Shown: piece after piece, positions 7,229-41,782 of the stretch | Layout of the letters: each line of letters opens with the position of its first letter | Numbering within the stretch: the stretch's first letter is position 1 | NCBI GenBank assembly: GCA_043228905.1 | Contig: JBHGNT010000021.1 | Location: 5,084,001-5,148,000, forward strand | DNA length: 64,000 nt | Reading direction: 5' to 3' | Origin: Azolla caroliniana | Lineage: Eukaryota; Plantae; Polypodiophyta | Notes under the pieces: generated by a model | The model's input: the letters and a program-made list of their open reading frames with translations, nothing else | Told to the model about the DNA's origin: nothing | Database searches by the model: none | Program-made: the position numbers and the translations under genes

Positions 7229-7973
7229 TATCGTGGCTTTCGGCTCCAGATCATTGCGTGAGTTGGGTGGGAACCGCCGAGGTTTTGGACTAGGAGGAGG
7301 AGAAGTTTAAGACTAATAAGAATATGAAAGAGGAAGGAAGGAATTTTGTGAATTTTCACGAGTATAGTGAATTAGAATAATTATTATTAAGAATCCAAGA
7401 ATCAATCCAAATCTTTCAATAGATGGGAAGAGAGTTAGAAGAAAATCGTGAAACACACGTATATAATGTATTCAATCAATATTTTGAAAACCCAAAAATT
7501 GACAACAACTTTACAATTTGCTCCCCCATCCTTATATAGTGATGGTAGAATCTAAGTTTACCACATGCAAGCATCATGCCTTTTTTAAACTCTAGTGTAC
7601 ATGCACACTACATGTCCATGATTAACTTTTCCCATCATGCTTTTCCTTTAAGTCAAGTGTTCATGCACACTACATGTGCATGATTAGCTTTTCTATCATA
7701 CTTTTTCATTTACCTCAAGTGTATATGTATGAATAACTTTTTCTATCATGCTTATCTAGAATATTTACATGGGATAAAGTTTAGTATAACTTTAATACTC
7801 ATAATGTACTAGTACATTGGTAAGGTTTAAAATCATTACCATGGAGGTACAAGATTCAAATCCTGCCCTATGCATGTAACATAATTATTCTAGTATTTTC
7901 TCCTATTTATTTATACTTAGTCAATCGGGTACTCCACACATATTTTACATAGTGTACAAAGTACACTACGACA
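7229..7973 (-). mobile_element. Solo LTR (about 745 bp) related to the LTRs at 20829 and 23617
   Basis: Its termini are the reverse complement of TGTCGTAGTGTA...GGAGCCGAAAGGCACGACA. Flanks are ACGT and ATGT, and LINE ORF2 resumes after it. Confidence 0.88.
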
Positions 7974-12058: not shown

Positions 12059-15000
12059 GGCATAAGTAGAACTATAGGGAGTCTTTCCCCATCGTAAGGT
12101 CTCTACAAGCTCGAGCTAAACTCAAACTTGGAAATTCAATATGAAGTGCATGCCCTCAATCAAAATCTAAGATAAACATTAGGTTTTGTGGAAGTACATG
12201 TCAACTTGTGAACAAATAATAGTGGGAGAAAATTTATTGCAAAGAAAACACCTATAGAATGTCATACATATAATTTGTTAGGACTTGTGTTGCCCCTTAT
12301 AAATTTTCCAACATGAGAAAATAAGTTTTTTTATTTTTCTCCAAATAAAAAACTCCTTCCATTAGTTATAAAATTTTACAAATGAGATTATTATGTACAA
12401 ATCCCTATAGGGACGCGATAGTTCCATCTTATGTGGATGTCCACTGACTCAAGAAAGGGAGAGGACGATCATTGTTGGATGAAGGCTATTCGTTGTCTTT
12501 CAACTCCATCGGAGCTGCCCTTGAGGCCATCATATTGGCTCTTTAGAGTGGCTACAATTTCACTCCATATCTCTTGCAAACGAAATGCCGAGAAGAAAGG
12601 AATCGGTGACAAATGCTCTTTGTGAACTATATATTGGTATTCAAGCTATGAGTTGTTGAATAGCATGGAAAATAGAAGAATGCATGGTATTGTCAATACA
12701 AAGCATTGCCAACACTAAAATCATCAAGTTTTTTTATTCCTACCTTGTTCTTGGGCTTGGTTCAAACAATCATTTGTGGTGATTGATGAAGTTAATGTTC
12801 TTGAACTTCATTTTGGACCATTCATTTCATCAACATACAATGTTTTTGGGATTGGTTCAACCATTTATTTGATTGATAAATTTAAGCTTCTTGTTCACAA
12901 CATGTGGTTACATTAAGCTAAACTTTTTTTGGGAAAAAAAAAACATTAAGCTAAACCATTCAACTTATTTATAGATTAAATTTCTTATTCATAGTCAATT
13001 CTATCCACCACTTGATTTGATTGGATTTATCCTTCATTTGATAAATAAAATAAAATTTTTAATCATGAACCAAGACATCCAACACACTTCTAAATGTGTG
13101 CATACGTTACATGTTATTCACACATCAACTTGTTGTCCAACACAATCTTAATTTGCACATATAATGTCAATGCTTGCAAGTGCCATCTATCTAACTAGTG
13201 GGGTTTTGGAAGTGGGGCTTTATGTTACATTCGCTATATTTAACTCTAAGGGGTTTGTGAGGCAATTGATTAGTAAGCATCAAATATTTAACCGTATGTA
13301 AACACATTGCTATATGTGTTGTAATCCCTATGTCTCACCAAAAACCAAATAATTGAATTTGCAATTTGCGATATGAACTTAATAAGTCTTTTTTTTTTTC
13401 CAAAAACAAAACTCCAACTTGATAAGTCTTAAATAGTAAGGATGTAGAATTAGGTTTGATAAGGTAGCTTGAATGAATTGTCTAATAGAAAAATATAACA
13501 AACAACCATTATATTAGGGGCAATATCAAAAGTACCCCTCCTAGCTCAAGCAATGCCATGCCATATACCCATATCGTTGACAAATATAGTAGTTAATATT
13601 GTTAAATATATACTTCTGTTAAACCAAATGTCCACTAATATGAAACTCAGCGTGTGCTAGAGGGGAATTGCGAAAAAGAGTCACAATTGCTAATCATTCA
13701 TTAGCAACATTATTAAATTGATCATATGACATGTATTTACCAACATGGTGCACATAAACTTTGATAACTATAATTTAAACATGTGAAATAACTTTATTTT
13801 GTGACGAAGCACGTAATTATCGATGTTATTACCAATTTAAAATCAACCGAAAACTAGTGTGATACTCTAATGGATGCTACATAAGTTTGTAATCAATGTG
13901 CTCAAAGATAAACTACTATAACATTTTAACTAGTTTTCTTTTTTTAAAACCTAATATTAAGAAAATAAATATGTTTGACAACCATGAGCTATAATCCTTA
14001 GTCCTTTTCAATTTGTAAAAGATCTCAAAATGATTGATGTGTAAGCTTCAAGAAATCAATTGGATGTAGAGTTTTTTTTTTCCAAACAAAATATGCTTCA
14101 TTAGTAAGATTATGCATACTTGACAACTTGATTAGGCTAACAACATTACATATGCTTCATTAGTAAGTTTCTGCATACTTGATGTTATGTACACATAACG
14201 TTGGTGAGGGTAGGTCACTAATATTTACATTAGTGAAGGGTATGTTCACTATTATTAAAAAGGGGACTAATGATTGGATAGAATGAATGATATGTGCATG
14301 CACTATCATGATTTAGACAACCAATGAATAGAGAGCCTTTTAGAAAGGCACATCTATTCAAGGGGCCTAGGAAAAGGTATAAATATGAGGCTTAGCTACC
14401 CTCATAGGTACATCACGTCGGAAGGCTGCTGTCGTAGACACCGGTGGTGCGGGCTAGGCTTTCGTCTCGACGATCGTGTTTATCTCTTCCAAGGTATTAG
14501 TCATCCTAATATCCGGCGGTATGGGACGTCGGTGGTAGGTTGGCTATGTCTAGATCATAGCTCGGGGGTGGTCGGGTGGAACGGGTTCTTCTATCCAATC
14601 TATTTTCTTCCTTTTTACTTGATTTGGTCTATTGATTAGTAATAGACTCTTAACAGTGGTATCAGAGCTTTTACTAACAATTTTTTTGTTGTTTTGATGT
14701 TTTTGCGTGTGAGCGAGGGGGATCTAACAAGGCTCGTCATGCTCTTCTCAGGATCAAAACAACACTCTAAACCCGGTATTCTTCTTTTTTGATCTCTTCT
14801 CTTTTTCTATTATGCGTTCTTTATGGTCGAATCAAATTGGTATTACGTTTTATTCTCTTTCTTTCTACCTCCTACTACGCTACGATTTTACTTATTATTA
14901 TGCATCGGGCCGAGCGTGTTTGCACTAATCGCACACGCTCAACTCATGGCCTTTTGCATATTGCGATATATATCTCACTCTCTCCTCTCTTGAACTCTTA

Positions 15001-16512
15001 CGATAATAATTATTCTTGTGCATTGGGTCGAGCGTGTTTGCTCTAATCGCACACGCTTATCTCATGGCCGTTTTGCATATGATGTTGAGTATACCACTCT
15101 TCCCCTCTATTGAGCCATCACTTGGCCGATTCTAAGGGATGATGTGGCCTTGACGAGGTGTATGTTGCCTACCTATGCCACTCTACTCTCTATTAAGCCA
15201 TCAATTGGCCGATTCTAAGGGATGATGTGGCCTTGACGAGGTATATGTCACTTACCTATGCCACTTTCCTCTTTAATTAGCCATTACTTGGTCGATTCTA
15301 GGGATATGTGGTGGTCTTGAGGAGGTGCATGTCAACTACCCTAGGGTTTCGTATCTTAGGGCATGTTTGATTCCATACACCTAATTGTTGATTATTCTAA
15401 TTAAATTTTAATTTCATAAGTATTGTTTCACTTATATGATTTTCTAGTAATTATTATTTACCCGCCCACAATTAACTATCCTTTTTCCACTTCCTTTTCA
15501 TGTATAAAGTATTTACATCGTTTATTTTTAATGTAACCTTTACGTGTACACTATTTTTTTCGTATGGAGTGGCTTGTTGAACGATTTTTTTTCAACGGGT
15601 CATCTTGGTTTAACTCTTATCATCAAGCCTTAGAAAACGAGTAAAACCATATGAGTTCCCTTATTGATGTTTTACTCATGGATTTGAGTATTACATCTTT
15701 GCGCACAACACCGTCATCACTTGTATCAATTTGTGGCTTATGTCACAATTGTGCAAGTTATAACAATCATATTGGGATGTATATGTGCATACCTTGCACT
15801 TCCCATTTATTTGTGACATTGTTTTTTTCGTAGGTAACACATGGGTTCTTTTTTTTACCCTTGTTTTCGTCACTACTTAACTCTTATGAGTAGTGCCTTA
15901 TTTTATCATTTTATCATCACGTTTGCTTATTGCTCGCAAGACTAGAATATTACTTGTGAGTGCACTTGTCTTTTCACGTAATACACTTTCTCGACCATAT
16001 AATACATGATGGGTTGGCATTAATATAAGGCTATCTAGGAAATTTCATTGATGTAAGAACCATGGTTGAGCCTCGGGGAGCCGCCATGATTACTCAAGAT
16101 AGAGATCCGAGAAATACATCTTAGCTATGTTTTCCCCCATGGTTTTTAAAACACCATAGTGTTACCATAGTTATCGGATCTTGAATCACATCTCATATGT
16201 CTAGAGGGGTAAAGACATGAGATACTTTCTTGGATAAAGTTCTTTCAATCAAAATTTCAAGCATTCATTTTGCTTGTGTATTTTCTGAACCTCCTTATTT
16301 TATTGCATACCCACAGCGTGCATCATGGAACAAGTTTTGAACGCAGTTGGAACGATCTCTCCAAATGAGACCTCTCAACCCCAATCCGCATCTCGCACAC
16401 AAGCTGAGATCACTATTGAGCAATTGCTCACTACTATAACAATTAAATTTGAAGGTCTAAAATATTATCCTTGCAAGCTAAGTTTATTTTATGCTAATTA
16501 AAAGCTAATGCC

Positions 16513-19500
16513 TTGAATCAATTGGCCGAAATGAGACAGGCCAATATGGCATTGGAAAAGAAATTCCAAGAATTAACTATTGAGTCCAAGAAAGAAGGTG
16601 AACCTTCCTTCGTAGTCACGCCTTTCAAGGGAGATAAGAAAGAAAGAACCGAGGAGGCCATTAGCACTTGGCTTGGTCGTTGGGAGTCTCACTTTGAGCT
16701 TCATCCCAAGCCCGATGCAGTAAAAATTGGTTATGTCGGTCGTGAGTTAGGTGGCCGAGCTGCTGCTTGGTGGCGTGGCCTAAGGACCGCAAAAAACTTA
16801 CCCACAACTTGGGAAGGTTTCGTTGATGTTTTTAAGAAACAATTCTTGCAGCCACCTTCTCAAACCGAACAAGCGCAACACTTGCTCACATTGTCTAGTA
16901 AGCCATTTACCTCTCTCGAGGATTATGTGCATCACGCTCGGACCCAGATCCAAAAATCGGGACTTACGGGTGAGAAATGGTTTGTTGCTTGTTTTTTGAA
17001 TGGTATTCCCAATGGGGATTATCATTGGATTGTCCATGACAAGGACCCCACAACTTTCGAGGAAGCCGTCAACATTGTGCTGCGATACCATAGGACTTCC
17101 AAGAAAGACCACAATAAACCTGAGTTCGCCAAAACTCCGAATGTCAAGTTCATTGGGAAACGTAAGCAATCCAGTGACACTCTTGACCGCGACTCAAAGA
17201 AACCGAACCTCTTCTGTGCATATTGCAAGAAGCGGGGCCACACAAAGGATACCTGTCGTCGTCTTGAGAGGAAGTCAATGAACACCCCTCCTCAAGACAA
17301 ATCTACGAGTCACACAGGTGAGTCTTTTGATATTGTTGAAGTTCATACCAATCACTTAAGTTTATGTGAATGCACTTTTCCTTCACATTTACTTGGACCT
17401 AATGATTTACTCCGAGCAGTCGGATATATCAATGGAACACAAGCACATTTCTTGTTTGATTCCGGTAGTTCTCACAATTTTCTTAATGATCACTTTGTGC
17501 AGCAAATGGAGCTCCACATAAACGCAAGTGATCATATCTATCAAGTTCACATGGCAAATGGAAACGTTCAATACATCAGTGGCATTGTTTGTCAACTACC
17601 AATTCAAATAGATACTTATTTGGAGAAGCTTGACTTTCATGTTATGAAATTACAATCCGCAGATGTCATTTTAGGATATCCTTGGTTTTTTAATAAAAAC
17701 CCTTCTTTGTCCATTGATTGGGTTAATCACTCAATCACATTTGAACTTAATAATTGTAAACATTTTATTCAATGTTCCAAACTTCCTTCTCATTCACTTG
17801 TGTCTTCTAAATCTTTAAGTGAGTATTCTAGTTCATTAATTTATTCGTGTGTAATTGATCCTGCGGTTCAATTTTATTATTTTAATATTGACGCCACACA
17901 ATTACCACATTTTGAGCAACGATTACTCGACTCTATTTTAGAGGATTTTCAAGATGTGTTTCCTACTGAATTACCGCTTACTTTACCACCTAAACGTAAT
18001 GTGGACCATCAAATTGAACTCATCCCTGGGGCTGCTCCTGTGAGCATTCCACCTTACCGACTTAGTCGATTAGAAGAGGATGAGATCGCTAAACAACTTA
18101 AGGAATACTTGAGTATGGGCCACATTAGGTATAGTAAATCACCTTGGGGTGCGCCAGTTCTATTAGTCAAGAAGAAGGAAGGTTCGTGGCGAATGTGTAT
18201 CAATTATCGCCGTTTGAATAAAATGACAATTAAGAATGCATATCCATTACCTCGTGCCGATGATTTGATTGATCGTTTGCACGGGGCTCGATATTTTACG
18301 AAAATTGACTTACGAACTGGTTATCATCAGATTCGCATCGCCGAGGATGATATTCCTAAAACCGCTTTTCGTACGCGCTATGGCCATTATGAGTTTTTAG
18401 TCATGCCATTTGGGTTGACTAATGCTCCAGCCACATTCCAACAAGCGATGAATGATGTTTTCCGAGATCAACTCGGTGATTTTGTTGTCGTCTTCTTGGA
18501 TGATATTTTGATATATAGCCGTACCTTGCAAGATCATGTTCAACATGTTCGATTTGTTTTGCGAAAGTTGCGTGACAACTCTTTCTATGCAAAACATTCA
18601 AAATGTGACTTCTTCCAAAAATCTATTGTGTACCTAGGTCATTTAATTACAGAAAATGGCGTTGAAATTGAACCTTCTCGTATTGAAAAGGTTAAACTTT
18701 GGCCCATTCCTCGTAATATTCGTGAACTTAGATCATTCTTAGGGTTTGTTGGATTTTTACGAAAATCAATTCGTAACTATTCCAAATTGACTACGCCATT
18801 AACTGACCTTTTAAAAGGTCATCCACGTAACTCTGTCAAACCAATTTCATGGAATGAACAACTTGACAAATCATTTGAGACACTCAAGGAGCATGTGTGT
18901 CAGGCTCCCACTCTTCTATTACCAGACCCTTCTAAGCCTTTCTCAATTGAAACCGATGCTAGTGATTATGCTATTGGTGCCGTTCTTTATCAAGGTGGTC
19001 ACCCTATTGCTTTTGAAAGTAAGAAGCTTGATGCTGCTCAATCTCGGTATTCGGTTCAAGAGAAAGAGTTGTTTGCGGTGATACACGCACTTAAAACATG
19101 GAGGCACTATCTTTATGGAAATAAATTTGTGGTTACAACAGACCATCAATCATTAAAGTATTTTTGTGACCAGCCCGATCTTGTTGGTCGTAAAGGCCGT
19201 TGGGTTGACCTTATGCAAGATTTTGATTTTTCCATACGATATCGCAAGGGTTCTATGAACACCGTTGCTGATGCTCTTAGTCGCATTAAAGAAGTTAACA
19301 TGCTTAGCTTCACGGAAATAAAATCTGATCTTTTAGATCACCTTCGAGGGAAATACCTTGATGACAGTTATTTCTCAAAATACTAGACGAAAGCCGAATC
19401 TGGTTTAGATGCCGATACTAGCACCCTACCCTCGAAGGCGACCTTTCACATTACAAACGGTTTGCTCTACCGTAGTGGAAAGGTCTGTGTTCCAGATTTA

Positions 19501-20802
19501 CCAAATGTTAAACAGAAATTTTTTCATGAATGTCATGATGCACCATCTGCTGGTCATCCTGGAATACAACGCACACTCGTTCTCATCTCGTGTACTTTTT
19601 TCTGGCCTAAGATGCGCTCTGACGTGCATAAATACGTAACTCAATGCTTACAATGTCAGATTAATAAGTCGGAACGACTTAAAGCTGCTGGTCTTTTACA
19701 TCCCTTAGATATTCCCAACAATAAATGGGAAAGTATCTCGATGGATTTTATTGTTAGTTTACCTCGTACACAGAGGGGTCATGATGCCATATGGGTTGTC
19801 GTTGACAGGCTAACAAAATTAGCTAGATTTATTCCTACAAAAACCACGGTAACCGCTCACCAATTGGCTTATCAATTTGTTGATGAGTTATTTCGTTTTT
19901 ATGGATTACCGATGGATATTGTTAGTGATCGAGATTCCAAGTTTACTAGTGACTTTTGGACTCAGGTCTTTAAGAAACTAGAAACTACGTTGAGCATGAG
20001 TTCCGCAGATCATCCTCAGTCTGATGGACAAACTGAACGAGTTAATCAAATTATTGAGGACATGCTTCGAGCTTATGTAGCAAAAACCCCTTCTAAGTGG
20101 GAGCAATACCTTCCTATCTTAGAATTTGCCTATAATAGCTCTAAACATACATCCACTGGATATAGTCCTTTTATGTTGATGTATGGTTTTCAGCCACGTG
20201 CCCCAGTTGATGTCACGATTCATCGTGATACATTAGACAGTACACGCAATTTTTTGCAAGACATGAACCAAATGTTGCATATTGCCAAAGAAAATGTCAA
20301 GACAGCTCAAGATCGTGCTCGATTTTATGCTGATCAGGATAGACGTCCTCGTGCATTTACTATTGGTCAAAAAGTTTTTTTGCGTGTCCCGATTGATTCT
20401 ACGTCATTATCTACGGGCAAGTGCGCTAAGTTAGCCCCACGATATTGTGGCCCATTTGAAATCCTTAAGCGAGTTGGGTCATCTGCTTATCACCTTGCCT
20501 TACCTCGTAACGTTGGTATTCATCTTGTTTTTCACGTCAGTCGTCTAAAACCATTTTTAGGCTCTGGTGATAACACCATCACAATCCAAGATCTTGTAAC
20601 ATTAGAGGATTTTTCTTACAAACCTCATGTTCCTGAACGAATTCTTGATTCTCGTACTAAACGTTTACGTTCTAAAGAGATTCGGCTATTCAAGATCAAA
20701 TGGATGGATAAACCTATTGATGATGCCACATGGGAACGCGAGCATTCGCTTAAGGCACAATTTCCTCACTTTATATTGCAAGAGTGCAATCTTTTGAAGT
20801 AG
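16513..20802 (+). CDS. Gag-pol polyprotein (gag, CCHC knuckle, protease, RT, RNase H, integrase, chromodomain) with one in-frame TAG at 19384-19386
   Basis: Motifs [55 protein letters not shown]...CLQCQ, SMDF...SDRD...GQTERVN, YCGPF and C-terminal PERILD...[14 protein letters not shown]. The ORFs at 16513 and 19462 share a frame. Confidence 0.93.
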
Positions 20803-20828
20803 GGGAGTATGTTATGTACACATAACGT

Positions 20829-23800
20829 TGTCGTAGTGTATTTTGTACACTACGTGAAAAACGTATATAGTATTAGATTCAATAAAAAATGAAGAAATAG
20901 AAGAAAATAGCAAAATAAATGGAACATGCATAGGGCAAGATTCGAACCTTGCACCTCCATGTTAATAATGTAATGTCTTACCATTACACTAGCATTTCAT
21001 TAGTGTTAAAGCATAGATGTCCCACATAGAAAGGTAAATTCACGCTAGGATAAACATTAGAAAAACGCATAACAAAAGAAAAAGCTACACATACACATCT
21101 AGCGTGCATGATAAAAAACGCACAAGTTAGAAAAAGCATGATCACTTTAGATAAAGCATATAGTCTATCTATAGGAAAAGCATGGGGTCTATAGTTAGAG
21201 AAAAAGCATGGATTACTAAGACTTCCTCATCACTACATAAGGATGGGAAGCACAATGTAATTGTGTGTAAAAATACTTGGAAACTGGATATGTTTCTAAA
21301 ACAAACACCAATTAATAAACTATACTCGTGGGATTCACGAGGATTCTATATCATTCTCTTTCAACCCAAATTTATATTCTTATATTCATATTGATTAATC
21401 TAATACAATACACTTGTGGGATTCACGAGTTTGCTATAACTCTTTCTTACAACATATTTATATTCTTATTAGCCTTAAAACTCTCCTCTTCCTAGTCCAA
21501 AACCTCGGCGGTTCCCACCCGACTCACGCAAACGATCTGGAGCCGAAAGGCACGACACAAGTTGGTGAACCCGACGTGAAGGCGGGTGGCAAGGAGATGG
21601 AGAATCAACAAGAGGCGATGAACATGATGATGATAATGTTTGAGCGGATGCAACAAGAACAACGTGCGATGTCGGAGATGAAGGCGGCAGTAGAGCGGCT
21701 TCTGCGACGAAACGGGGAATTCAACGGTAAGGGTGTGTCACGCTACCTACGTGAATATAAGGCGGAGATGATGCAATATCGGATACCGGAAGGATTGCAA
21801 GTGATATCCTTTAGTCGGGTGGCCTCGGACGAACTACAAGAGAGAATCCACAAGATACAACAACAAAACTCGACATGGGAGTCCTTTGAAGAAGCTTTAC
21901 GGGAGGCATATGACTATGAGAGATGGACGGGACGAGATCGACGAGAATTTGACGAATGGGTGGCGTCGGAGAAGACTCACCGAAGTGCAACGCAAGCGTT
22001 CCTAGAGTTCGAGCATCGTTTTGCTCGACTCTCGGAGCGGGAACGAAGATTGGTGGGAGGAGATAAAGTCTTAATGTTCGTAAGATCGATCGATCGGAAA
22101 GAAAGGATGGACATTGGGATCGAACTCGAAGACGATGAAGGTACAAATGGTCTTACCGAGGATTGGGCTAAAGTCGAAAGGGTATGCCGGAGACATGATG
22201 AGAGGAAGATGAGAATCTTGTCAACGACATGGCCGATGAAGGATGGTCGATTGAGGAAAAACGATGAAGCCAATATGAAGGCCGAAATACAACATGATGG
22301 TACCACGGGAGAAAGAGTGGAACAAGACACCCACTCGTCTTGTGAAAGAACGATGGCGAAGGATAAGGCCGATAATTCAAGTGTAGAAGGAAATTTCGGG
22401 ATACAAGTGCCCGAGACATCGGGTCAAAAAGGGGTAAGCATAATAGATGTTTGCATAATTGATGCAGATAAAGAGTGTGAAGCGGATGTGATTAAGGAGG
22501 TAGCCACAAAAGACGAAATCGAATCGGAGGTGGCTATGGACGAATCAATGGCGGATTGCCATATCGAGACTTCCCCACCACTGATTCCAGAGACTCCGGC
22601 GGTTGCGATCGAAAGGCAACGTGAGACCGAAGAGACGGAAGGTGGCGGAGAGAAAACGAATGTCGAAGCCGACGAATACGATGAAGAGATAGCCGAGAAT
22701 AATGCTAAGGGTGAAACTACGAAAGAAGGTAATACCGAGGATTCATGCCAACAATATCTAGAGACTTCGGCGGTTGTGTTCGAGAACCAACGTGAGACCG
22801 GAGAGACGGGAGATGGCGGCGAGGAAGGTAAAGTCGGAAGTCGGTTCGGATGGAAAATGATCCATCCGAAATTCCAATCTAAAAGAAAGTGCGACAATGC
22901 GGAGGTCGGGTCTACGACGGGAGAAGCGCGTAATACAGAGCACGCTCTACGGCGAATAAAGAAACGCGTGTTATGGCGAATAAAGAAGCACGCGCTACGG
23001 CGAGAAAAGAAGCATGCATTACAACCACACGAGGACCGAACAACGAGCACATATCGGAGGACCTACGTGGCGAACAACGGAAAGAAGTGCCGAAAGTCGA
23101 ACCGGACAAGGCAGGTGAAAACGAAGAAAAGAAAGCAAATCCGGACGAAAAGAAAAGAAAAGAAACCGACCCGAAAGAGCACTGAATCGGTAAAAACCGA
23201 TCAACCGAGTCCGGATCGACCGAATACAAATCGGAAAGGAAGCCGAACTAAACGAAAGACGATCCGACGAGACCGAATCGGAAGTAAGCTAATCCGACTA
23301 AACCGAAAATCCGAAAAGAAGTCGAGATTGATGAAGAAAAGAAAGAGGGCAAGAAAAGATACTACCGCGGATGACAAGGACCAAGCGGGCCATGCAAAAA
23401 GCGAACGAAGACTATGGTGGATCGGATGTCGACAATGGTTCGGGTGGAAAGAATGGATGTGCTCCAAATGGAGAGACAAAGTCAACATAACAAGAGAAGT
23501 CGAGGGTACTACGAGCCGGCAACGAAACCAATCGGGTAGAGCCCGGACGGAGGAGACTAACAAACACCAACAACTTCGGCACATACCGGAGGATGTGCGG
23601 GTTTGGAGGGGGTGAGTGTCGTAGTGTATTTTGTACACTACGTGAAAAACGTATATAGTATTAGATTCAATAAAAAATGAAGAAATAGAAGAAAATAGCA
23701 AAATAAATGGAACATGCATAGGGCAAGATTCGAACCTTGCACCTCCATGTTAATAATGTAATGTCTTACCATTACACTAGCATTTCATTAGTGTTAAAGC

Positions 23801-24345
23801 ATAGATGTCCCACATAGAAAGGTAAATTCACGCTAGGATAAACATTAGAAAAACGCATAACAAAAGAAAAAGCTACACATACACATCTAGCGTGCATGAT
23901 AAAAAACGCACAAGTTAGAAAAAGCATGATCACTTTAGATAAAGCATATAGTCTATCTATAGGAAAAGCATGGGGTCTATAGTTAGAGAAAAAGCATGGA
24001 TTACTAAGACTTCCTCATCACTACATAAGGATGGGAAGCACAATGTAATTGTGTGTAAAAATACTTGGAAACTGGATATGTTTCTAAAACAAACACCAAT
24101 TAATAAACTATACTCGTGGGATTCACGAGGATTCTATATCATTCTCTTTCAACCCAAATTTATATTCTTATATTCATATTGATTAATCTAATACAATACA
24201 CTTGTGGGATTCACGAGTTTGCTATAACTCTTTCTTACAACATATTTATATTCTTATTAGCCTTAAAACTCTCCTCTTCCTAGTCCAAAACCTCGGCGGT
24301 TCCCACCCGACTCACGCAAACGATCTGGAGCCGAAAGGCACGACA
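20829..24345 (+). mobile_element. Nested non-autonomous gag-only LTR retrotransposon with apparently identical 729-bp LTRs
   Basis: LTRs 20829-21557 and 23617-24345 (TGTCGT...ACGACA); PBS TGGTGAACCCGACGTGAA 21563-21580 (tRNA-Trp); PPT GGAGGGGGTGAG before 23617; TSD ACGT, confirmed against the uninterrupted host 5' LTR. Confidence 0.93.
21597..23615 (+). CDS. 672-aa Gag-like protein with acidic middle and basic C-terminal regions; no recognisable pol domains
   Basis: An open frame runs from the ATG just after the PBS to a TGA overlapping the PPT. The N-terminus (FNGKGVSRYLREY...WESFEEAL...GLTEDWAKVERVC) resembles the gag remnant at 33830-34600. Confidence 0.75.
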   Translation: MENQQEAMNMMMIMFERMQQEQRAMSEMKAAVERLLRRNGEFNGKGVSRYLREYKAEMMQYRIPEGLQVISFSRVASDELQERIHKIQQQNSTWESFEEALREAYDYERWTGRDRREFDEWVASEKTHRSATQAFLEFEHRFARLSERERRLVGGDKVLMFVRSIDRKERMDIGIELEDDEGTNGLTEDWAKVERVCRRHDERKMRILSTTWPMKDGRLRKNDEANMKAEIQHDGTTGERVEQDTHSSCERTMAKDKADNSSVEGNFGIQVPETSGQKGVSIIDVCIIDADKECEADVIKEVATKDEIESEVAMDESMADCHIETSPPLIPETPAVAIERQRETEETEGGGEKTNVEADEYDEEIAENNAKGETTKEGNTEDSCQQYLETSAVVFENQRETGETGDGGEEGKVGSRFGWKMIHPKFQSKRKCDNAEVGSTTGEARNTEHALRRIKKRVLWRIKKHALRREKKHALQPHEDRTTSTYRRTYVANNGKKCRKSNRTRQVKTKKRKQIRTKRKEKKPTRKSTESVKTDQPSPDRPNTNRKGSRTKRKTIRRDRIGSKLIRLNRKSEKKSRLMKKRKRARKDTTADDKDQAGHAKSERRLWWIGCRQWFGWKEWMCSKWRDKVNITREVEGTTSRQRNQSGRARTEETNKHQQLRHIPEDVRVWRG

Positions 24346-25265
24346 ACGTTGGTGAGGGTAGGTCACTAATATTTACATTAGTGAAGGGTATGTTCACTAT
24401 TATTAAAAAGGGGACTAATGATTGGATAGAATGAATGATATGTGCATGCACTATCATGATTTAGACAACCAATGAATAGAGAGCCTTTTAGAAAGGCACA
24501 TCTATTCAAGGGGCCTAGGAAAAGGTATAAATATGAGGCTTAGCTACCCTCATAGGTACATCACGTCGGAAGGCTGCTGTCGTAGACACCGGTGGTGTGG
24601 GCTAGGCTTTCGTCTCGACGATCGTGTTTATCTCTTCCAAGGTATTAGTCATCCTAATATCCGGCGGTATGGGACGTCGGTGGTAGGTTGGCTATGTCTA
24701 GATCATAGCTCGGGGGTGGTCGGGTGGAACGGGTTCTTCTATCCAATCTATTTTCTTCCTTTTTACTTGATTTGGTCTATTGATTAGTAATAGACTCTTA
24801 ACACTTGACAACCTGATTAGGCTAACAACATTACAATGGCTCTAGCCATGACGACCTATGAAAACCACAAATAATACAGTCTAAGATTATTTCCACCTTC
24901 TCACCCAACCTTTTTGCCAAAAACTTCAAGGCACAAAACTATTACCACTATTTGCAAAGCATGTGATCAATGCATTCAATGGTGCCCTACCTGTTATAGG
25001 CATGGTTCATCCCCCCCCCCCGTGAAACTCATATCAATCAACATCCATGTCTTGTATGCGCTGTCATCATTGCATTCCATGAAACCACATATGTAGTTAG
25101 AAGCCTTTGGAACACATCTCATACTTCAACAAGCCAGCTAACATGGTCATGAGAGTTCCATTTCCGGCTTTTATAAAATGGTGTGTTACACCTTCCATTT
25201 CCAACTACTCTTTTCTCTACGTGAGCTTCCATTGCAACCATCACAACAACTACTTCCAAGGTTCA

Positions 25266-27760
25266 TTACAGCTTCTGCACTAGAATTCCTATGAATCCTC
25301 CAAATTTCCTGCATCTTACCAAAGGTGGTTCGTAAACATGAACTCCACAATCGATGAACATCTCCCTAAGTAATGTTGTTACCATGCCAACACCCATAAC
25401 AACAAGTAATGTTGATGCCATGCCAAAGTCCATAACACCAAGTCCATTAGATTCAACATGTTGTATTGATATAGATTCTTTCACTATGATTCCTTGATTG
25501 TTGCTGCATTTGAGAGTTCATCCAGATGAACATACCATATTAAAATTCTCTCAGCCACGTTGCCAGCTATCTCCTCATCAGTTACGACGTCATTGGCACT
25601 GGACACCTCATGCAACCTCCTTAATCCACGAGATTCTACAACAACATGTCAGCTAATTAACGACTTCTCTTGTATTTTTCTATGACCTTAGCTGAATACT
25701 AAACATGATAGCAAATTAGCTACATGGTAGGTAAATAACAGCCACTCTTGATACTGCTCGATACTCCTACATCCTCCCTAATTAGCTACATCTTAGCTAA
25801 GTATGGAAGTAGCTAATTAGCTACCACTTAGCTAATTAGCTACATCTTAGCTAAATAGATATTCTTCTTAACTATGGCAGTAGCTAATTAGCTATCACTC
25901 TTGATAATGCTTAGCTAATTAGCTACATCTTAGCTAAATAACTATTCTTCTTAACTATGGTAATAGCTAATTAGCTATCACTCTTGATATTGTTTAGCTA
26001 ATTAGTTGCTAGACTATAGGTCGGCAGTAGCTAATTAGCTACATCTTAGCTAAATAGTTATTCTTCATAACTATTGCAGTAGCTAATTAGCTATCACTCT
26101 TGATAATGCTTAGCTAATTAGTTGCTGACTTTAGATTGTCAGTAGCTAATTAGCTATTCTACTTAAGTATGGTAGTACCTAATTAGCTACATTGTAGCTA
26201 ATTAGTTGCTACAATATAGGCTGCAATAGCTAATTAGCTACTTAAGTATGGTAGTAGCTAGTTAGCTACCACTCTTGATACAACTTAGCTAATTAGTTGC
26301 TACACTATAGATTGACAGTTGCTAATTAGCAATTCTACTTAAGTGTTTAGTAGCTAATTAGATACATTGTAGCTAATTAGCTACTACACTATAGGCTGGC
26401 AGTAGCTAATTAGCTACATCTTAGCTAATTAGCTGCTAGACTATAGATTGGTGGTAGCTAATTAGCTATTCTTCTTAACTATGGCAATAGCTAATTAGCT
26501 ACCACTTTTGATATTGCTTAGCTAATTAGCTAAGATGTAACTAATTAGTTACTACACTATAGAGACAAACGACAATTTTACCTGTTACTTTTCTCCACTC
26601 ATCTGGGAAAGTTGTATTGCAATCCCCCAAATAGACTACACCAATGTGACATGCATATTGAAAGCAAACGATATGGTATGTGTGCTGCCATGGTCGTAGG
26701 TGTACCAATAGAGTAGCAGTTTTGTCCTCTACGCCTAAGTTGCAAGCGATGCAACGTGCTTGAACAGTCAATATATTGTTGTCTGGTTCTCCTTCGTTTT
26801 GTACGGGAGCAAGAATGTTGAGGTCAAATTCTTGTCTACTCTTTACCATCCCCTCCACAAAATGTAGTTGCTTCTTAAGGCAACTAACTACCTGTTCTTG
26901 ACGGGAGTATTGTTCCTAGCACGCAACCAAGAAATTACAGATTTATCATTCCTTAATGAGGAAGATAGAACAACAAGAAACAAGAATCATTAACTTACTA
27001 GGAGGTTCTCGAAATTGTAATCATCGACAATATTTACACCTAGAAGGTCCAGGTTCATTGAAAGAACCTAGATCTTTGTCTACAGTTGTATTTTCCACTA
27101 GGGATCCAACGACCCCTCAATTTCGAGCTCATGTTGAGCAACCTGTTTTAGATAATGCCTCACTAAGCACATTTTCATGTACAAGTTATTTATAACATGT
27201 TACATACTAGCCTATATCATCGACATTGGCTTTCATTGTGTTTCGGTGTGGTGTATACTTGCGGGTTTGTTGGGAGTCAACAGTTGCATCATCAACTACC
27301 ATGCTCCAGAATCTTGCCATTTTTTGTTGCAAGCTCCCCATATTCCGGCATCGTTCTACCGATGCCTCACCATAAATAGCCCAAGCTACCCTGTACATTT
27401 CAGGGTCCGTTGCTTCCTTCATTGTTTTGCAATACTCGTATGCAAAACCTCTCGCAAATGCAACAGACAACTTGTTGTTGACCGGGACCTCTTGATGTAC
27501 TTTTTGGTGGATCCTGATGCAGTTGTCATACAACTCCAGTCATACATGCTTGAGCTTCACCTCGCCTTTCATTCTAGGACTTTATAGACTGACAACCAGT
27601 CTACATCACTAATCAATTTATCTGTTAGAACAACAGGGACAATACCCTCTAGCGATAGACCATATATGTTGTTAAAGTCTTCTTTTGTCTCACAAAACTT
27701 TGCAAAGTTCAACACTCTAAGATATGGAGGAATGAGCCACCTGAAATAAAAAATCAATAC
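25266..27760 (-). pseudogene. Degenerate multi-exon ORF with a RING-like Cys/His motif, probably transposon-associated
   Basis: CIACNL...PWQHTYHIVC...LGDC in ORF 26541-26858; candidate donor at 26581 and acceptor at 25636. Other fragments were not recognised. Confidence 0.35.
25690..26550. repeat. Satellite-like array built on the palindrome TAGCTAATTAGCTA
   Basis: Many exact and near-exact copies separated by short recurring spacers (acatctt, tcactcttgata, ttcttcttaactatggcag). Confidence 0.92.
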
Positions 27761-32658: not shown

Positions 32659-35600
32659 TGTCGTGAAGATTTTCGGCGATAGTGTGTAAATTGTGAGGAA
32701 AATACAAAATCGAGTGTGGTTCTTCTCACAAGATATGAAACAATAATAGTGAAGATACTATTCTAAATAAGTTTAATATCTTGGTACGAAAAGATGGAGG
32801 TCTTAAAGAGCTTTCGAATGCACTTTACTACATAAGAAACAGACAACGAAGTGTCAAGTTATGTGGGTATAAAGATTGCGAAGAAGAAGAGAAAAACAAA
32901 ACTATGAGATATCCCACATAGATAGGACAAATAATGATCCCAGAATATATAAGCAGACTAATATCTCTTCATAATATATCTATGTGTTTGGAGCATAGAA
33001 AGGTTGAGTTGTATGACTTGATGAATGGATGCAGCCAAATTTGATGGTTTTGGACGAATCCAGTCAGAACCGGACCGTTAGACGGATCGCGAAGGAATCG
33101 GATGCGGATCGGATGGACCCAACGGGTAGATTTATCGCGACGCACGATGTCTTGAAGTTTTCCGGTGTGAAATGAACAAAATCGTCTAGTTCTTTGGAGG
33201 TCAAGTGAAGGTGTAATATGCACTTAAACATTTGTAAAAACAAGACTAAAAAGCCTAGTAAAAAGAAAATTTGTATACAAAGGGGTGCAAGTAAAAATTT
33301 GAACCTTGCACCTCCAAGTTGAAAGTCGATAGGCTTACCACTAAGCCAAGTCATCTCTTCAAAAGGTTTACTTGATCATTTTACATGTAAATTCTCATAC
33401 ATGAGAGCTTAGATGATGACATGGCAAACATGCATTTCATGCATTACGTGCATGTCTTGCACCCTCACATGCACCATATGCATGGGGGCATCTATAAAAG
33501 AGTGGAAGAATCAAGCAAGAAAAAACTAATGAAAAATTTGGGAAAAATAAGAAACTTGTTATCCTATTGTTGATGTATCTTGTCTCTCAAATCTAAAGTT
33601 AAGCGTTTAATCTTTATCTCAATCTCTCTCTTTCTCCATATCAATCTATCTTAAATACTTTCTCGTTAAAGCTAGTACAAACTTCAAATCCTTCCGGTCC
33701 AGAACCCCGGCGATTCCGCCTCATGATCCGCACATAGTGCCGAATTTTCACGACATAATTAAGTGGTGAACCCGACGTGAAGAGGCGGTAGGAAGGATCA
33801 AGTCAAGGATCGATCGATACTTGGAGATGGCATCCTCAAGTAATCAAGTAGGAGAGCTCAAAAGGATGATGCTAATCGTCAAACAAATGATGAGATCTTG
33901 GGACAACGATGCGAGCGTGGAGAATGGAGAAGGTCGTCGACCGTGTCGTAGAGCTCGAGGGTCAATTTGATGGAAGGAACATTACGAAGTTCCTTGATGC
34001 ATAAAAAAGGGAGATGAATCAAAGGGACGTGTCCGAAACGCGTCAAATTACAAGTTTCAAAGAGAGTGGTCGCCAACAACCTCCAAAGATGCGTCATTGA
34101 GCTTCAAGAAGGCAAGACAACATGGTCCGAGTTCGAGAGAGCAATATTAGCGTAGTTCGCGACGGAAGATTTGTCGAGGATGACTCGACATGCCTTGATG
34201 AAGTGGATAGAAAAGAAAAATAGAAGATGAGCGCCTCGAGGGTATACGACGAATTCGACCAGATGTTTAGTCGTCCCCCCAACACAGACCAAGTGTTGCT
34301 TGAGGAGGACAAGACTTTGTACTTCTTAAAAGTTGTGGATATGAAGGATAGATGAGAATTGGGTCTGACTCTTCTTGAAGATGATGCCCAAGCAATCGGG
34401 CTTGTGGCAGACTGGATTGCGGTGAAACGAGCGTGCAATAGGCTCGACAAGCGTCGTCAGTGGGTTGATGACACCAACTTGGCAGGATCATCCGAGGAGA
34501 AAACGAGACAACCGAAAGTAGTTGAGCCGCCCAAACAAAGCAACCCGGAAGAAAAGAAGATCGATGACGACATCATCAAAGAACTGGCGAAGAAGTTCGA
34601 GATGGTCACGATGTCGTTCCTTTCGGCGCCAGATCGTTGCGTGAGTCAGGTGGGAACCGCTGGGGTTTTGGACTAGGAGGAGGAAGAATTTGAGACGATT
34701 CTAGTTATGAATAGATTATAAGAAAGAGATAAAAGAACTTGTGAATCCCACAAGTATATATAATTAGATTTATTAATATTTAGAATCCTAATAACAATTT
34801 AGCATAGATTGGAAGAGTAGATTATATAAAACTTCGTGAATCCCACGAGTATATGTTATTAATTGGTGTTTTAGGAAATATATCCAATTTCCCAAATTTT
34901 TCACACACCTTTTACATTGTGCTCCCCATCCTTATGTAGTGATGAGGGAGTCTTAGTAATCCATGCTTTTTTTTTCTAACTATAGACTCCATGCTATAGA
35001 CTATATGCTTTATCTAAAGTGATCATGCTTTTTCTAACTTGTGCGTTTTTTATCGACTATAGCGTTCATGCACGCTAGATTTGCATGCGTAGCTTTTTCT
35101 TTTAGCATGCGTTTTTCTTTTAACTAAAGTTTATCCTACGTGAACTTACATTTTTTATGTGGGACATCTACTTTTTAACATGAATGAAATTCCAGTGTAA
35201 TGGTAAGGTTTCACATTATTAACGTGGAGGTGCAAGGTTTGAATCTTGCCCTATGCATATTATATATATTTTAATATTTTCTACTATTTATTCATATTTA
35301 TTAAATCGGTACTTTATAAGTTTTTCACGTAGTGTACGAAATACACTACGACAACGCTAGCCAACATGAATTGTCGGGGCCCCAAAGGAAAAGAACCCTT
35401 TAGATGCGTGTGGTGCGATAGCATGGACCACATGAGAAGGGATTGTGTGAGCCTTCGGGACGCCATTCGACAAAATATCGTATAATGGATGGCAACATGA
35501 TCTGCTCAAGTGAGACTAGAAGACCCCTACGGGTGAATTTCGGGAGAGGGGGAATGAAGAAAACCATGGAAGATGCCGAGGCCACTCATGTGGATGCGAT

Positions 35601-37119: not shown

Positions 37120-40100
37120 TTAGTATCTAGTAAAGAATAACGTTGAGTAATTTGTTGCTCAACTAAATTGGAGAAGCGGGAAGAGTTGGCGCGCTCCAAA
37201 AAGGTATCTTCTACTATAAAAGGACTCACTCCACCTTCAAAGTCCTTGCTCCTTCTTTGCGATGGAGTTTCCTTCTGCTCCAAGGATTTGTTTTCATCGC
37301 CATCTCGTTGCACGCCAAACTGTTGACATTGATGGTCGCGCTTCTCCTTTTATTGACCTCGCCTCCTGCTGGTTGTGGTGTTGATGACAGCATTGTTGCT
37401 CCATGTTCTACTACTGATCACGAGGTTGTTGATGGCCATGTTGATGTTGGTGGCAATGCCGATGGTGACCGAGCTGATGGTCGTTCTGGTCATGGCCGAG
37501 CTTTTGGTGGTGGTGATGGTCATGGTTGAGCTGATGGTGATGGTGGTCGAGTTACTAATCATGTAGATGATCGAGAGGATGTTGATAGTGTGGAGGGTCA
37601 TTCTGATTTTGTGGAGAATGATCATGCTGAATTTGTGGAGGATGATCATGTTGATCATGTCAAGGATGTTCGTCTTCATGCGGCTTCATCATAAATGTTG
37701 ATGCGGGAATGAATTTGACTTCTTTATTCTGTCGACTTTCTAGAGTTTTCATTCACCATCGACTTTCACTTATGTTAGCTACTCTTTCTAAATCCTTCAC
37801 TAAAATCTCTTGATAATTTTCGCGATTTTGATGAGATTTCCACAACCAATCTTTCTTTTCCTTATCTATTGTATGCGTCTCGTGTGTGTCTTCACAGTGA
37901 TCGGAATCCTTGTTTGTAAGGGTAGGTCGGAATGTTGTATAGGTAATGAGTTACTCCTACATCCTCATCTTCTGCTAGAACTTCAGCATGTTTGCGATGT
38001 TGGAACTACTTCGAAACACTCCTTGTGATCGGACCACCATAATTTTCTATTTTGGAAACATTTGGAGTAATTAGATCATTAATGTTTAAATTTTGCTTAA
38101 AGTCGTGTACCTCATGTTGTGTTTGTTGCTCAAGTACATTAATTTCATCAAATATGACTAATCGGCTAAACAAAAACTTGTGTGTATGTAGATCAAATAA
38201 TTTGTATGCTTTAACTCTAGAAGATTCACCATATCCATCAAAAATACATTTTCTAGTATGAGGATCTAATTTCTTCCTTTTCTCTATAGGTACATGACTG
38301 TAGTGATTGAACACTCGTAGATGACTAAGGTTAGGTTTATGCTTAAACCAAAGTGAATATGGTGTTTCCAGACCGAGTATCTTATGTGGTGATCGGTTTT
38401 GCAGGTAACATGCAATGTCAACAGCTTCTTACCAAAATTGAAGAGGCATTCCAGCAACTTGAATCATACTTCAACATACATCTAGGAGGGTTCAATTGTT
38501 GCGCCCAACTATACCATTCTGTTGTGGGTTGTATGGTACAGCATGCTCATGCCTTATTCCATTTTCTTCACAAAACCTCGTCCATTCAAGAGATTGCATC
38601 GGTCCACATAGGTCTGAATGAATTAGTTGTAGTGGTCATTCCATCCTTTTCTGTTTGCCTTTTGGAAACTTCTGTCGACATTGCTTGTCGTAGATGCATC
38701 CCTCACATATTGATATATATCTAAATTACTTCATTGGAATTCCTTCGAATAATTTATGAACTTGACCAATCTTCATCGCCTTCGGGTTGAGATGCCCGAG
38801 TCGATGATGCCAAAGCATTGTAGGATCAATGTGTGCAGCGCCTGACGCAAAGAGGGCTTGTATAGGACTTTTGTCCATCATTTGTAAAGGGTAGAGTCTT
38901 CCAGATTCGGGGCAAGTCACTCTTAACATCTCACTAGTAGGTAATTCATGAGAAATATGCAAAATTATTATTGAATTGTATATGTACTTGTTCCATTTTT
39001 TATTGCTTCACTTATGGATATTAAGTTTCTCATTACACCTGGAACATAAGAAACATTTGGGATGCTCACCATCTTTGATTTGTTTAGAGACAAGTGTACT
39101 TCCCCTTTGCCAATGACAACTTTTGTGCCATGGTCGCCGAATGTAACTTGGAGTGCTTGTAGAAGGGGGCAATAGTTATGTAGAAGATTTTTGTTATTTG
39201 TCAAGTGATGCGTCGCCCAAGTGTCGAAGAACCAAAGGTTGCCATTGCCTATCTTTTGATTCACTTGACCTTCATTTGCATCACTTGTAAAAGCTTGAAT
39301 AAAATTATTTTCTTCATCTTCTTCACAATAGCTCAGATTATCATTTTGTAATGATGCACTATGTATTTGAGGATAAGACTTCTTCCCTTTCCTTTTCAGA
39401 TCAAATTGCTTCTTTCTACAATCCTTTTCAAATTACAATACCTACATGTTGTCACGGATCATAAACTCAAGAGACAAGCAAGAAGATAACCAAATGGACA
39501 AGAAAGAAGATAGTATTAAAGGAAAGACTCCATAACTGGTGTTGTTCACCTTGAATTCCTTCAAGGTGAACTCCTCTATTTATACTACATGGCATGCATA
39601 CTTGTTGCACGCATGTGAATCTACAATAGAGCATGTAGGTATGCATGCATGTGCCAAGTGTAAATACTACAAGGGAGCAACTATGCACATGATGCTAGCA
39701 AAATAATGACCATTTACATACATAACTAGTACTAGATATCTTGGTTAACTCATAATACTAGATTATAACATGGTCGTGTCAAGAGTTCGAATCTTGACAT
39801 TATCCCCCCTCTTGCGCCGCCTTCCCAAATCGGCCGTTGGTTTGTGGGGATATCGGTGATGAAAATCTTGGACGACCTCTGGGGCATTTTGTAAATTTGC
39901 CGATGGTTCCCATGTGGCCTCAGACATGGGGTAACCCCTCCATAGGACGAGGTATTGCAAGTGTCGACGGTGCCAACGCGAGTCAAGGATTTGGTCGACC
40001 TCGTATTCCTCCCCTGTCGTCAATTGCACAGGTGGTGTGGTGGGGCTTGACGTCCTGGGAGTTGTGAAGCATAATGGGGTTCGAGGAGGGAGACATGAAA

Positions 40101-41782
40101 AACATCGTGAATCCGGAAGTGGGATGGAAGAGCGAGCCGGAAGGCGACGGGATTGATGCACTCGATGATACGGAATGGTCCCAACTTCTTGTAATCAAGT
40201 TTCGCACATGGACGAGTAGTAGAGATGTGTCGACGTAACAACCAGACCATGTCTCCAACGACAAAGTGTGGAGTGGAAGATCGATGGCGATCAGTTATGG
40301 AGTCTTTCCTTTAATACTATCTTCTTTCTTGTCCATTTGGTTATCTTCTTGCTTGTCTCTTGAGTTTATGATCCGTGACAGTTTGTTCACCTTGAATTCC
40401 TTCAAGGTGAACTCCTCTATTTATACTACATGGCATGCATACTTGTTGCACGCATGTGAATCTACAATAGAGCATGTAGGTATGCATGCATGTGCCAAGT
40501 GTAAATACTACAAGGGAGCAACTATGCACATGATGCTAGCAAAATAATGACCATTTACATACATAACTAGTACTAGATATCTTGGTTAACTCATAATACT
40601 AGATTATAACATGGTCGTGTCAAGAGTTCGAATCTTGACACATGTGATTGTAGATATCGTCAAGCCTCCCATTCCACTTTATTTGTTCTTTTGTTGAAAC
40701 TTCTGGTTGTTTGAAAACCGTTGGAATTTTTGCTTCGCAAAGTTGCCTCAATTATTTCTCCTTGAGGCTGCCATGGCCATGTGGCTAGCTCGTGTTGTGA
40801 ACTTGTTCTTTTCCTTTGTAGTTCATCCTACTTTAACTTTGCTACTAAATTTTGTAAATTTAAATTTTTGTCTTCACTGTGAATACTTATAAAGGTCATC
40901 CATGATTTTGGTAGCGCTTCCATTAAAATTTCACATTTGGACATTTCATCGATATTATTACCTGAAGAGATGGCTATGTCTAATTGCTTTTGCCACTTCA
41001 TTATAAATGTGTCAATTTGTTCGCCTTCTTTCATCTGTAAATTCATTAATGCTTTGAACGAAAAAAAAAATAGTTGTCACGTCAGATGGTTGATGAATCT
41101 TTCACAAATACTCCCACATTTCATTTGTTGTGTAAGTTTCGAACATAATCAACTTGCTCATCACTCAAGTGCATTATTATCTCCATTCTAACATCGAGGT
41201 CTTTGCTTTTCCACATGCTCTTCCTAGGTTCTTGTTCAAGCATTTTCATGGGACCATCTATTATATCTTTTAGATTATTACGCTCCATTATCAACTTCAT
41301 CCGTGTCTTCCACATCCTGTAATTGTGAGTAGTTCGTTTCTCAACTACATATTTTCTTACCAAACTTGATATATTTGCAGGATGGTGATTGTTTGATGTA
41401 GATGTGGATAGGTTTTCTAATTCTTCTTCGAACTCCATCTTGCTTAGATCGTTTGGATCAATCCAAGAACAAAATCTTTTGTGTTTTGATTGATGTCTCT
41501 AATTTAGTTTTGATACCATGTAAGAAATCAAGCAATTACACAAGAGATAGGAAGAAGATAACAGGGGGGGGGGGAGAGAGAGAGAGAGAGAGATCAAAAA
41601 CTAATAGTTGTATTTCTCACACCACATGAATAATGGTTACAATGTGTATATAAGAGAGAGAAGATAGTTACAAAACGTTTTTATAAAAGAGGGGTATTTT
41701 AGGAATTATTATTTATTACTTTATTTATCATAATATGTTTTATTTTTACTCCTAATATTATACTTTATTTTATATTCTAACA
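37120..41782 (-). mobile_element. Degenerate Ty1/copia 5' portion (LTR 41519-41782, Met PBS, gag, protease, integrase), RT/RH absent
   Basis: TGATACCA at 41511-41518 next to LTR TGTAAGAA...TTCTAACA; NYRMWKTRM, LQMKEGEQID, WFFDTWATHHLT, LWHHRLGHLN, RKKLDPHTRKCIFDGY. Confidence 0.85.
39450..40640 (-). mobile_element. Internally deleted Tcn1/Tf-like chromovirus (two ~350-bp LTRs, integrase C-terminus and chromodomain) nested in the copia gag knuckle
   Basis: TSD CATGT on both sides; LTRs 39450-39799 and about 40292-40640; PPT (plus TCCCCCCTCTT) at about 39803; KLDYKKLGPF...HDVFHVSLLEP and EEYEVDQILDSR...YLVLWRGYPMSEATWEP. Confidence 0.88.

Follow-up and report, generated by a model that had tools for sequence, protein, structure and literature searches.

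The LTRs of a young Phygy-type Ty3/gypsy element in the window (the whole 64-kb stretch of DNA analyzed here) carry in U3, antisense to the element, a short cassette with perfect A and B boxes that is, judging from its sequence, very probably derived from a tRNA. Tentatively, we read this cassette as the worn copy of a tRNA gene that may have been kept as a Pol III/TFIIIC-binding cis-element. The initial annotation had described a minus-strand A box and B box, the latter within a GCAAG/CTTGC stem, at a spacing of 43 nt; the sequence is as claimed, with 43 nt from the start of the A box to the start of the B box. The parts of the copy in the 5′ LTR are as follows.

20935..20991, minus strand: tRNA-derived cassette, tRNA positions 8-63 (RF00005 alignment and tRNA HMM), antisense to the element, 106 bp inside the 5′ LTR
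20981..20991, minus strand: A box TAGTGTAATGG, 8/8 consensus positions
20939..20948, minus strand: B box GGTTCGAATC, 8/8 consensus positions, in a hairpin loop, within the GCAAG/CTTGC stem
20921..20963, no strand assigned: extended hairpin around the B box (z −3.0 and −3.4), folding about equally on either strand
20912..20915, minus strand: first T4 run after the B box, a possible terminator at chance level

Both 8/8 scores are counted against A-box and B-box consensus sequences that we take to be the standard ones.

Aligned to RF00005, the cassette takes up model positions 8 through 63 in register, with one inserted base, and scores 13.4 bits, below the family cut-off of 29 bits (E = 2.5 in a 131-nt scan against all Rfam families); the anticodon stem is mismatched. 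Rfam at gathering level returns no match in the 64-kb window, a 1-kb LTR scan returns no tRNA match, and RF00005 matches are absent for metagenome loci L046 and L019 and for a further window copy at 33.3 kb. ARAGORN calls no tRNA in the window or in 13 loci; this, the low score and the mismatched anticodon stem rule out a functional tRNA gene. An independent tRNA profile HMM, built from 390 phage tRNAs called by ARAGORN and not fitted to the cassette, gives 19.3 bits (E = 3.9e-5), the top match of the 64-kb window, and at most 5.5 bits on 20 block shuffles of a 57-kb LTR set, so the likeness exceeds chance. The same HMM scores 29.2 bits on L046, whose closest phage tRNAs are Asn and Lys, 21.8 on L059, 18.7 on the 33.3-kb copy, 11.0 on L008, and 10.6 on a solo LTR copy at 35 kb.

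The element that carries the cassette has the following organization.

20829..24345, plus strand: young, pol-less Phygy-type Ty3/gypsy element of 3,517 bp, with identical LTRs, ACGT on both sides and a primer-binding site (PBS)
20829..21557, plus strand: 5′ LTR, 729 bp, TG...CA
21233..21242, plus strand: TATA-like site, predicted Pol II promoter, ~240 bp from the A box, matched in position in the solo LTRs and L018
21563..21579, plus strand: PBS of tRNA-Trp type, motif 5 nt past the LTR
21588..23615, plus strand: single gag-like ORF of ~675 codons with a long low-complexity tail
23617..24345, plus strand: 3′ LTR, preceded by a purine tract
23723..23779, minus strand: cassette in the 3′ LTR, identical to the 5′ LTR copy

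Because the two LTRs are identical at 729/729 positions, the recurrence of the module in the 3′ LTR, as first noted, is that of an identical copy. The PBS at 21563 has an isotype that we take to be tRNA-Trp. No Pfam pol domain was found in the element. The R/U5 part of the LTR holds a repeat of a 53-nt unit (21313-21365 and 21401-21453) with a small inverted repeat inside; the repeat is also kept in the solo LTRs and in metagenome locus L009. The element is flanked by a 4-bp duplication, ACGT, that fits the NCGN type. In the parts of the published Phygy description available to us, the target duplication is 4 bp, NCGN, and 81% have a tRNA-Trp PBS (PMC6317226); the element at 20829 shares the duplication, has a PBS that we take to be of the Trp type, and differs in that the described copies are 7.7 to 10 kb long and come from Physcomitrella, whereas this one measures 3.5 kb and lacks pol. 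Those parts of the description make no mention of an LTR cassette.

The further Phygy LTRs of the window, their cassettes and the neighboring elements are as follows.

14183-24803, plus strand: chromovirus-type Ty3/gypsy element, its 3′ LTR split by the Phygy-type insertion
34612..35353, minus strand: solo LTR of the family of the 20829 element, 80% identical, inserted in the gag of a second family, flanks GCGT/TCGT
35193..35249, plus strand: cassette in this solo LTR (W35), B-box C changed to T
7229..7973, minus strand: older solo LTR of the family of the 20829 element, flanks ACAT/ACGT
7810..7866, plus strand: decayed cassette in this older solo LTR
32659..33755, plus strand: 5′ LTR of the second, distant Phygy family, PBS at 33764
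33292..33348, minus strand: cassette in this LTR, antisense, 18.7 bits, perfect 4-bp D stem
39450-40640, minus strand: chromovirus-type remnant with a chromodomain ORF at 39763-40191

The young element is inserted 19 bp inside the 3′ LTR of the chromovirus-type element, which encodes gag, protease, RT, RNase H, integrase and a chromodomain, with one stop between two ORFs and LTRs that are 99.8% identical. Both solo LTRs contain the module, as had been observed before; their cassette regions match at 85% over 109 nt and 76% over 111 nt. A fifth window copy, at 33348-33292, was missed by the initial annotation. It belongs to the second family, whose broken gag is 29% identical to that of the 20829 family and whose LTR (32659) has CCGT on its left; its place in a Phygy LTR rules out a free SINE.

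The LTR of the 39450-40640 remnant starts with a hairpin that has an antisense B-box-like loop and is 85% identical to the cassette over 39 nt; this chromovirus LTR hairpin (39759-39799 and 40600-40640) was rejected as a cassette copy, at 4 to 5 bits on the tRNA HMM, within the range of the shuffles. Over its last 89 bp, the 5′ LTR of the remnant has an inverted orientation compared with the 3′ LTR, and it is not followed by a PBS; this may be connected with self-priming of Tcn1-type elements, or be a rearrangement. An isolated tRNA-like stretch at 50389-50444 (plus strand; 13.7 bits, E = 0.002), with an A box and no B box, lies in an apparent intron of a Sin3-like gene, an exon of which has its best named match in Marchantia (47%). 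The host is probably a land plant without seeds. The window also holds a degenerate tandem array on a palindromic 12-nt unit (25709-26562) and a 136-nt inverted repeat (60824-61151; 93% complementary, 56 nt apart) that is a possible MITE or hairpin-RNA locus.

Relatives were sampled in metagenome contigs by their PBS pattern, independently of the cassette, which gave at least 120 loci, with flanks for 80; the loci come mostly from one series of assemblies, and some of their LTRs were probably collapsed by assembly. Among the matches listed, the cassette profile matches six metagenome LTRs (L008, L018, L019, L046, L059, and L083). Over window and metagenome, all 11 copies among the matches listed lie in LTRs and all 11 are antisense, in line with the U3 position and orientation claimed from the window. 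Outside Phygy LTRs there was no copy in 240,751 bases, a sample biased to Phygy elements; in the read-out of the DNA runs, where contigs are short, ~1% of contigs continue into unlike sequence. The proposal that a tRNA or SINE head had been captured survives as to the tRNA origin, and found no support as to a free SINE source in this biased sample.

Cassette-bearing LTRs are 590 to 1,150 bp long and have a TATA-like site, the elements are at least 3.5 kb, and the carrier loci include a gag-protease element (L059) and a pol-like ORF of 1,047 aa (L019). In L019 (29-4045), this ORF, in which RT, RNase H and integrase are joined to a short gag start, makes up a Phygy-type unit of ~4 kb, and a second PBS and gag start follow the LTR, in a tandem array or a collapsed assembly. 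The 616-aa ORF of the cassette-bearing element in L008 (868-2718) has no match to the Phygy gag profile. A gag tree of 19 rows, 18 of them with 170 aa or more and the other being L018, rejects a single clade of carriers (AU p = 7e-74); L008, L019, L046, and L083 were left out. Among 25 complete metagenome LTRs (from 26 rows; L052, with no gag after its match, was dropped), the cassette is present in 4, among the matches listed, and absent from 21; it is therefore not needed for Phygy replication. Locus L009 is 84% identical to the 20829 element in gag and 75% identical over the final 243 bp of the LTR, but its U3 differs and is without the cassette, and L057 and L078, close to L059 in the gag tree, are likewise without it. 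The cassette is optional. Exchange of U3 blocks has likely carried it from one family to another or removed it, and loss from an ancestor would leave the same pattern. In viral contigs, the LTR-end pattern and gag gave no matches, the PBS pattern six unrelated matches, and the cassette pattern two chance matches.

Other tRNA-like stretches occur in the sample. In another Phygy family, a sense-oriented tRNA-like 3′ half (16.7 bits) stands twice downstream of the TATA-like site of L062 (~380 and 216 nt from the end of the LTR), and is also present in L049; this is possibly a second, independent tRNA capture. Next to a Phygy LTR, L041 (2245-3040) has a tandem series of degenerate tRNA-like copies, which ARAGORN missed.

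The cassette is the sole blastn match between the LTRs of the 20829 element and L046 (80% over 45 nt) and between those of L008 and L046 (76% over 68 nt), and the A-to-B spacing is 43 to 44 nt in all nine copies measured, of ten. The fixed box bases are identical at 12/12 in each pair of W1, L019, and L046, compared with 16 to 20 of 29 other positions. Across four family representatives, 10/12 box columns are invariant vs. 11/29 others (Fisher p = 0.009); the choice of other representatives gives p = 0.05 and 0.06, and the full set of ten copies, some of them decayed, gives p = 0.23. Three of the metagenome copies were first found via the B-box pattern, so box conservation is inflated. Between families, 7 to 8 of the 8 nt that precede the B box are identical vs. 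40% in pairs of real tRNAs, so the copies have a single origin. In alignable families, five of six pairs show the cassette better kept than the rest of U3 (cassette/rest identities of 0.88/0.83, 0.75/0.60, 0.65/0.65, 0.82/0.64, 0.81/0.57, and 0.77/0.59), and other U3 windows equal it in 75/234, 3/234, 149/234, 155/663, 106/645, and 40/235 cases (1 to 64%). Between families the box bases are thus kept more strongly than the anticodon arm, an advantage that is weaker with other representatives and absent with all ten copies.

In the young element with identical LTRs, both boxes are perfect and the anticodon arm is scrambled. Among the contigs of the sequencing runs, one set diverges across the anticodon arm and is then A-box-like again, the same pattern as between families. 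By contig depth, a rough measure of variant share, the invariant B-box C (20944) is changed to T in 28% (X4) and 30% (X1), a change also seen in W35 and L059; the partner change of the same CpG, tolerated by the B box, takes 13% and 11% in the two runs. Summed contig depth in X4 reaches 607,000 over the B-box hairpin vs. 20,000 to 61,000 on its flanks, a peak that we do not count as evidence because contig depth cannot rank parts. Of three further runs presumed to be RNA, X23 gave one contig (depth 2.9), X20 gave 17 from another organism and X24 gave none; contigs carry no information on strand or level. We consider present or recent selection on the cassette probable.

What is kept, namely the two boxes, their spacing, their orientation and a place upstream of the TATA-like site, agrees with a site for TFIIIC binding, whether or not a short transcript is made. 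The cassette lies upstream of that site in the LTRs inspected, at 140 to 240 bp in the three measured. In yeast and animals, tRNA genes and B boxes have barrier activity. If the cis-element reading is right, as it could well be, TFIIIC would bind the cassette, and Pol III might transcribe a short hairpin RNA from it (~87 nt in the 20829 element, 20998-20912). The cassette faces away from the predicted LTR Pol II promoter, and a bound site would help to keep that promoter open, as a putative barrier or nucleosome-free anchor with the chromatin of the flank on one side and the TATA region of the 5′ LTR on the other. A wider proposition is somewhat doubtful: that in coding plant LTR retrotransposons a tRNA gene has been domesticated into a portable Pol III/TFIIIC cassette that faces outward from U3. 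Such a cassette would shield the Pol II promoter from silencing and/or give rise to a short antisense hairpin RNA, and distant families would exchange it as an optional module against silencing.

The cassette might instead be a passenger, a tRNA gene or short SINE captured once into Phygy U3 and copied or swapped since, with no present function. Its optional occurrence (4/25 complete LTRs, among the matches listed), the B-box C-to-T change in ~30% of contig depth, the decay of the cassette in W7, L018, and L083, its only moderately better conservation than the rest of U3, and the ascertainment of copies by a B-box pattern all agree with this. Neutral decay or recent exchange should, however, strike evenly, and the boxes are kept at 12/12 against 55 to 69% for the rest; nor do a fixed spacing, an orientation that never flips, and a young family with perfect boxes beside a scrambled anticodon arm sit easily with an idle sequence, and we consider such a passenger unlikely.

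Selection could also act on the hairpin, either in the sense RNA of the element, whose 3′ end holds U3, or in single-stranded cDNA at the stage of packaging or reverse transcription; origin from a tRNA would then be incidental. The region 20918-21000 folds with z −3.6, and among nine copies folded, with L083 left out, the hairpin has z −2.3 to −4.1 on the tRNA-like strand in six and −2.2 to −4.1 on the element's strand in seven; its 5-bp core is kept with loops of 8 nt or 13 nt, and one compensatory change (G-C to A-T) occurs in the related pair L008/L083. The 5′ arm is as conserved as the B box; as the arm is no promoter element, a model of TFIIIC binding alone leaves this without explanation. 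Against a hairpin as the selected feature, the A box lies outside it and is still kept at a fixed distance, the B-box bases, located in the loop, are kept by sequence, the compensatory event is a single one, and RNAalifold on the gapped alignment finds only four pairs at −0.3 kcal/mol. We regard this alternative as distinctly unlikely.

A trans-acting product, namely a short antisense hairpin RNA made by Pol III that would be a source of small RNA, a decoy or a means of self-restraint, is very unlikely in our view. The layout of boxes, hairpin and T run in the 20829 family suits it, but the 3′ end is not conserved. The T4 run, offered in the initial annotation as a terminator, is uninformative: T4 occurs in 61 to 75% of 40-nt windows on the antisense strand of the U3 regions of cassette LTRs, L046 and L008 have none within 125 nt, and the 33.3-kb copy has an early T5 at the end of the B box. 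The stem, at 10 to 15 bp, is short for a plant small-RNA precursor, and by eye there is no complementarity to the PBS. Plant type-2 Pol III units, in the source as available to us, have an upstream CAA and a downstream run of 5 to 6 T (PMC7544208). The copy at 20991-20935 has no CAA and, counted from the A box, T4 at +76 and +84 and T6 at +102; in four of ten copies, which make up two related pairs, a CAA stands no more than 10 nt upstream of the expected start, a weak signal. A parallel for such a product is the U3 of foamy viruses, which holds Pol III miRNA cassettes of 111 to 128 nt (PMC6950176). As far as the parts of that report at hand go, the likeness is that of a short Pol III-type hairpin cassette, dispensable for replication, in the noncoding U3 of a Pol II-driven LTR; those cassettes, however, are double hairpins from animal retroviruses, yield proven miRNAs and are not described as tRNA copies, whereas the Phygy cassette is one short hairpin, tRNA-derived and antisense. 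Self-priming by an antisense RNA is ruled out by the ordinary PBS of the element.

Among published systems, Helenus (TRIMp3; Kojima 2024) and Cassandra come closest. Helenus LTRs hold tRNA-derived segments with conserved boxes A and B (PMC10886601). In the portions of that paper available to us, the likeness extends to a tRNA segment in both LTRs that is kept around the boxes and is neither a working tRNA nor a primer, to the presence of a PBS and PPT, and to a likely origin by tRNA or SINE capture. Helenus elements are noncoding TRIMs of 311 to 1,263 bp, however, whereas the 20829 element has 3,517 bp and an ORF of ~675 codons, and the tRNA part is in sense in four Helenus LTR sequences (three wasp families and Helenus-1_SMo) and antisense in the Phygy copies. 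The sense orientation fits Pol III transcription of the Helenus element; an antisense promoter cannot transcribe the element, so that explanation does not apply here, and the cassette-bearing Phygy element is no Helenus but follows a related principle. Cassandra, as described in the same source, likewise has a Pol III promoter of small-RNA-gene origin inside plant LTRs; it differs in being of 5S type, in sense, and the driver of its own transcript in a noncoding TRIM (PMC10886601).

The novelty suggested in the initial annotation is accordingly narrowed: tRNA-derived LTR segments are in print with Helenus, and for an antisense tRNA cassette in Phygy or other long coding plant LTR elements we found no published case, in a search that covered the subscription literature thinly. 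The parts of a sugar-beet preprint at hand merely cite Cassandra and Helenus (10.64898/2026.03.01.708851). Kojima remarks that part of a tRNA is present in "not a few LTRs" of Repbase, in a paper that, as far as available, analyzes only TRIMs (PMC10886601), so an unanalyzed record may exist.

For the known small-RNA promoters in LTRs, those of Cassandra, Helenus and Ajax, the explanation given is that each serves to transcribe a short noncoding element. Since an antisense copy cannot serve in that way, the Phygy cassette, if selected, would point to retrotransposons using Pol III elements in a second way, for example as a built-in chromatin barrier or as the source of a short regulatory RNA. 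Close relatives with and without the cassette (the 20829 element and L009; L059 and L057) make this idea testable. Solo LTRs, in their thousands, could also distribute TFIIIC sites across the host genome.
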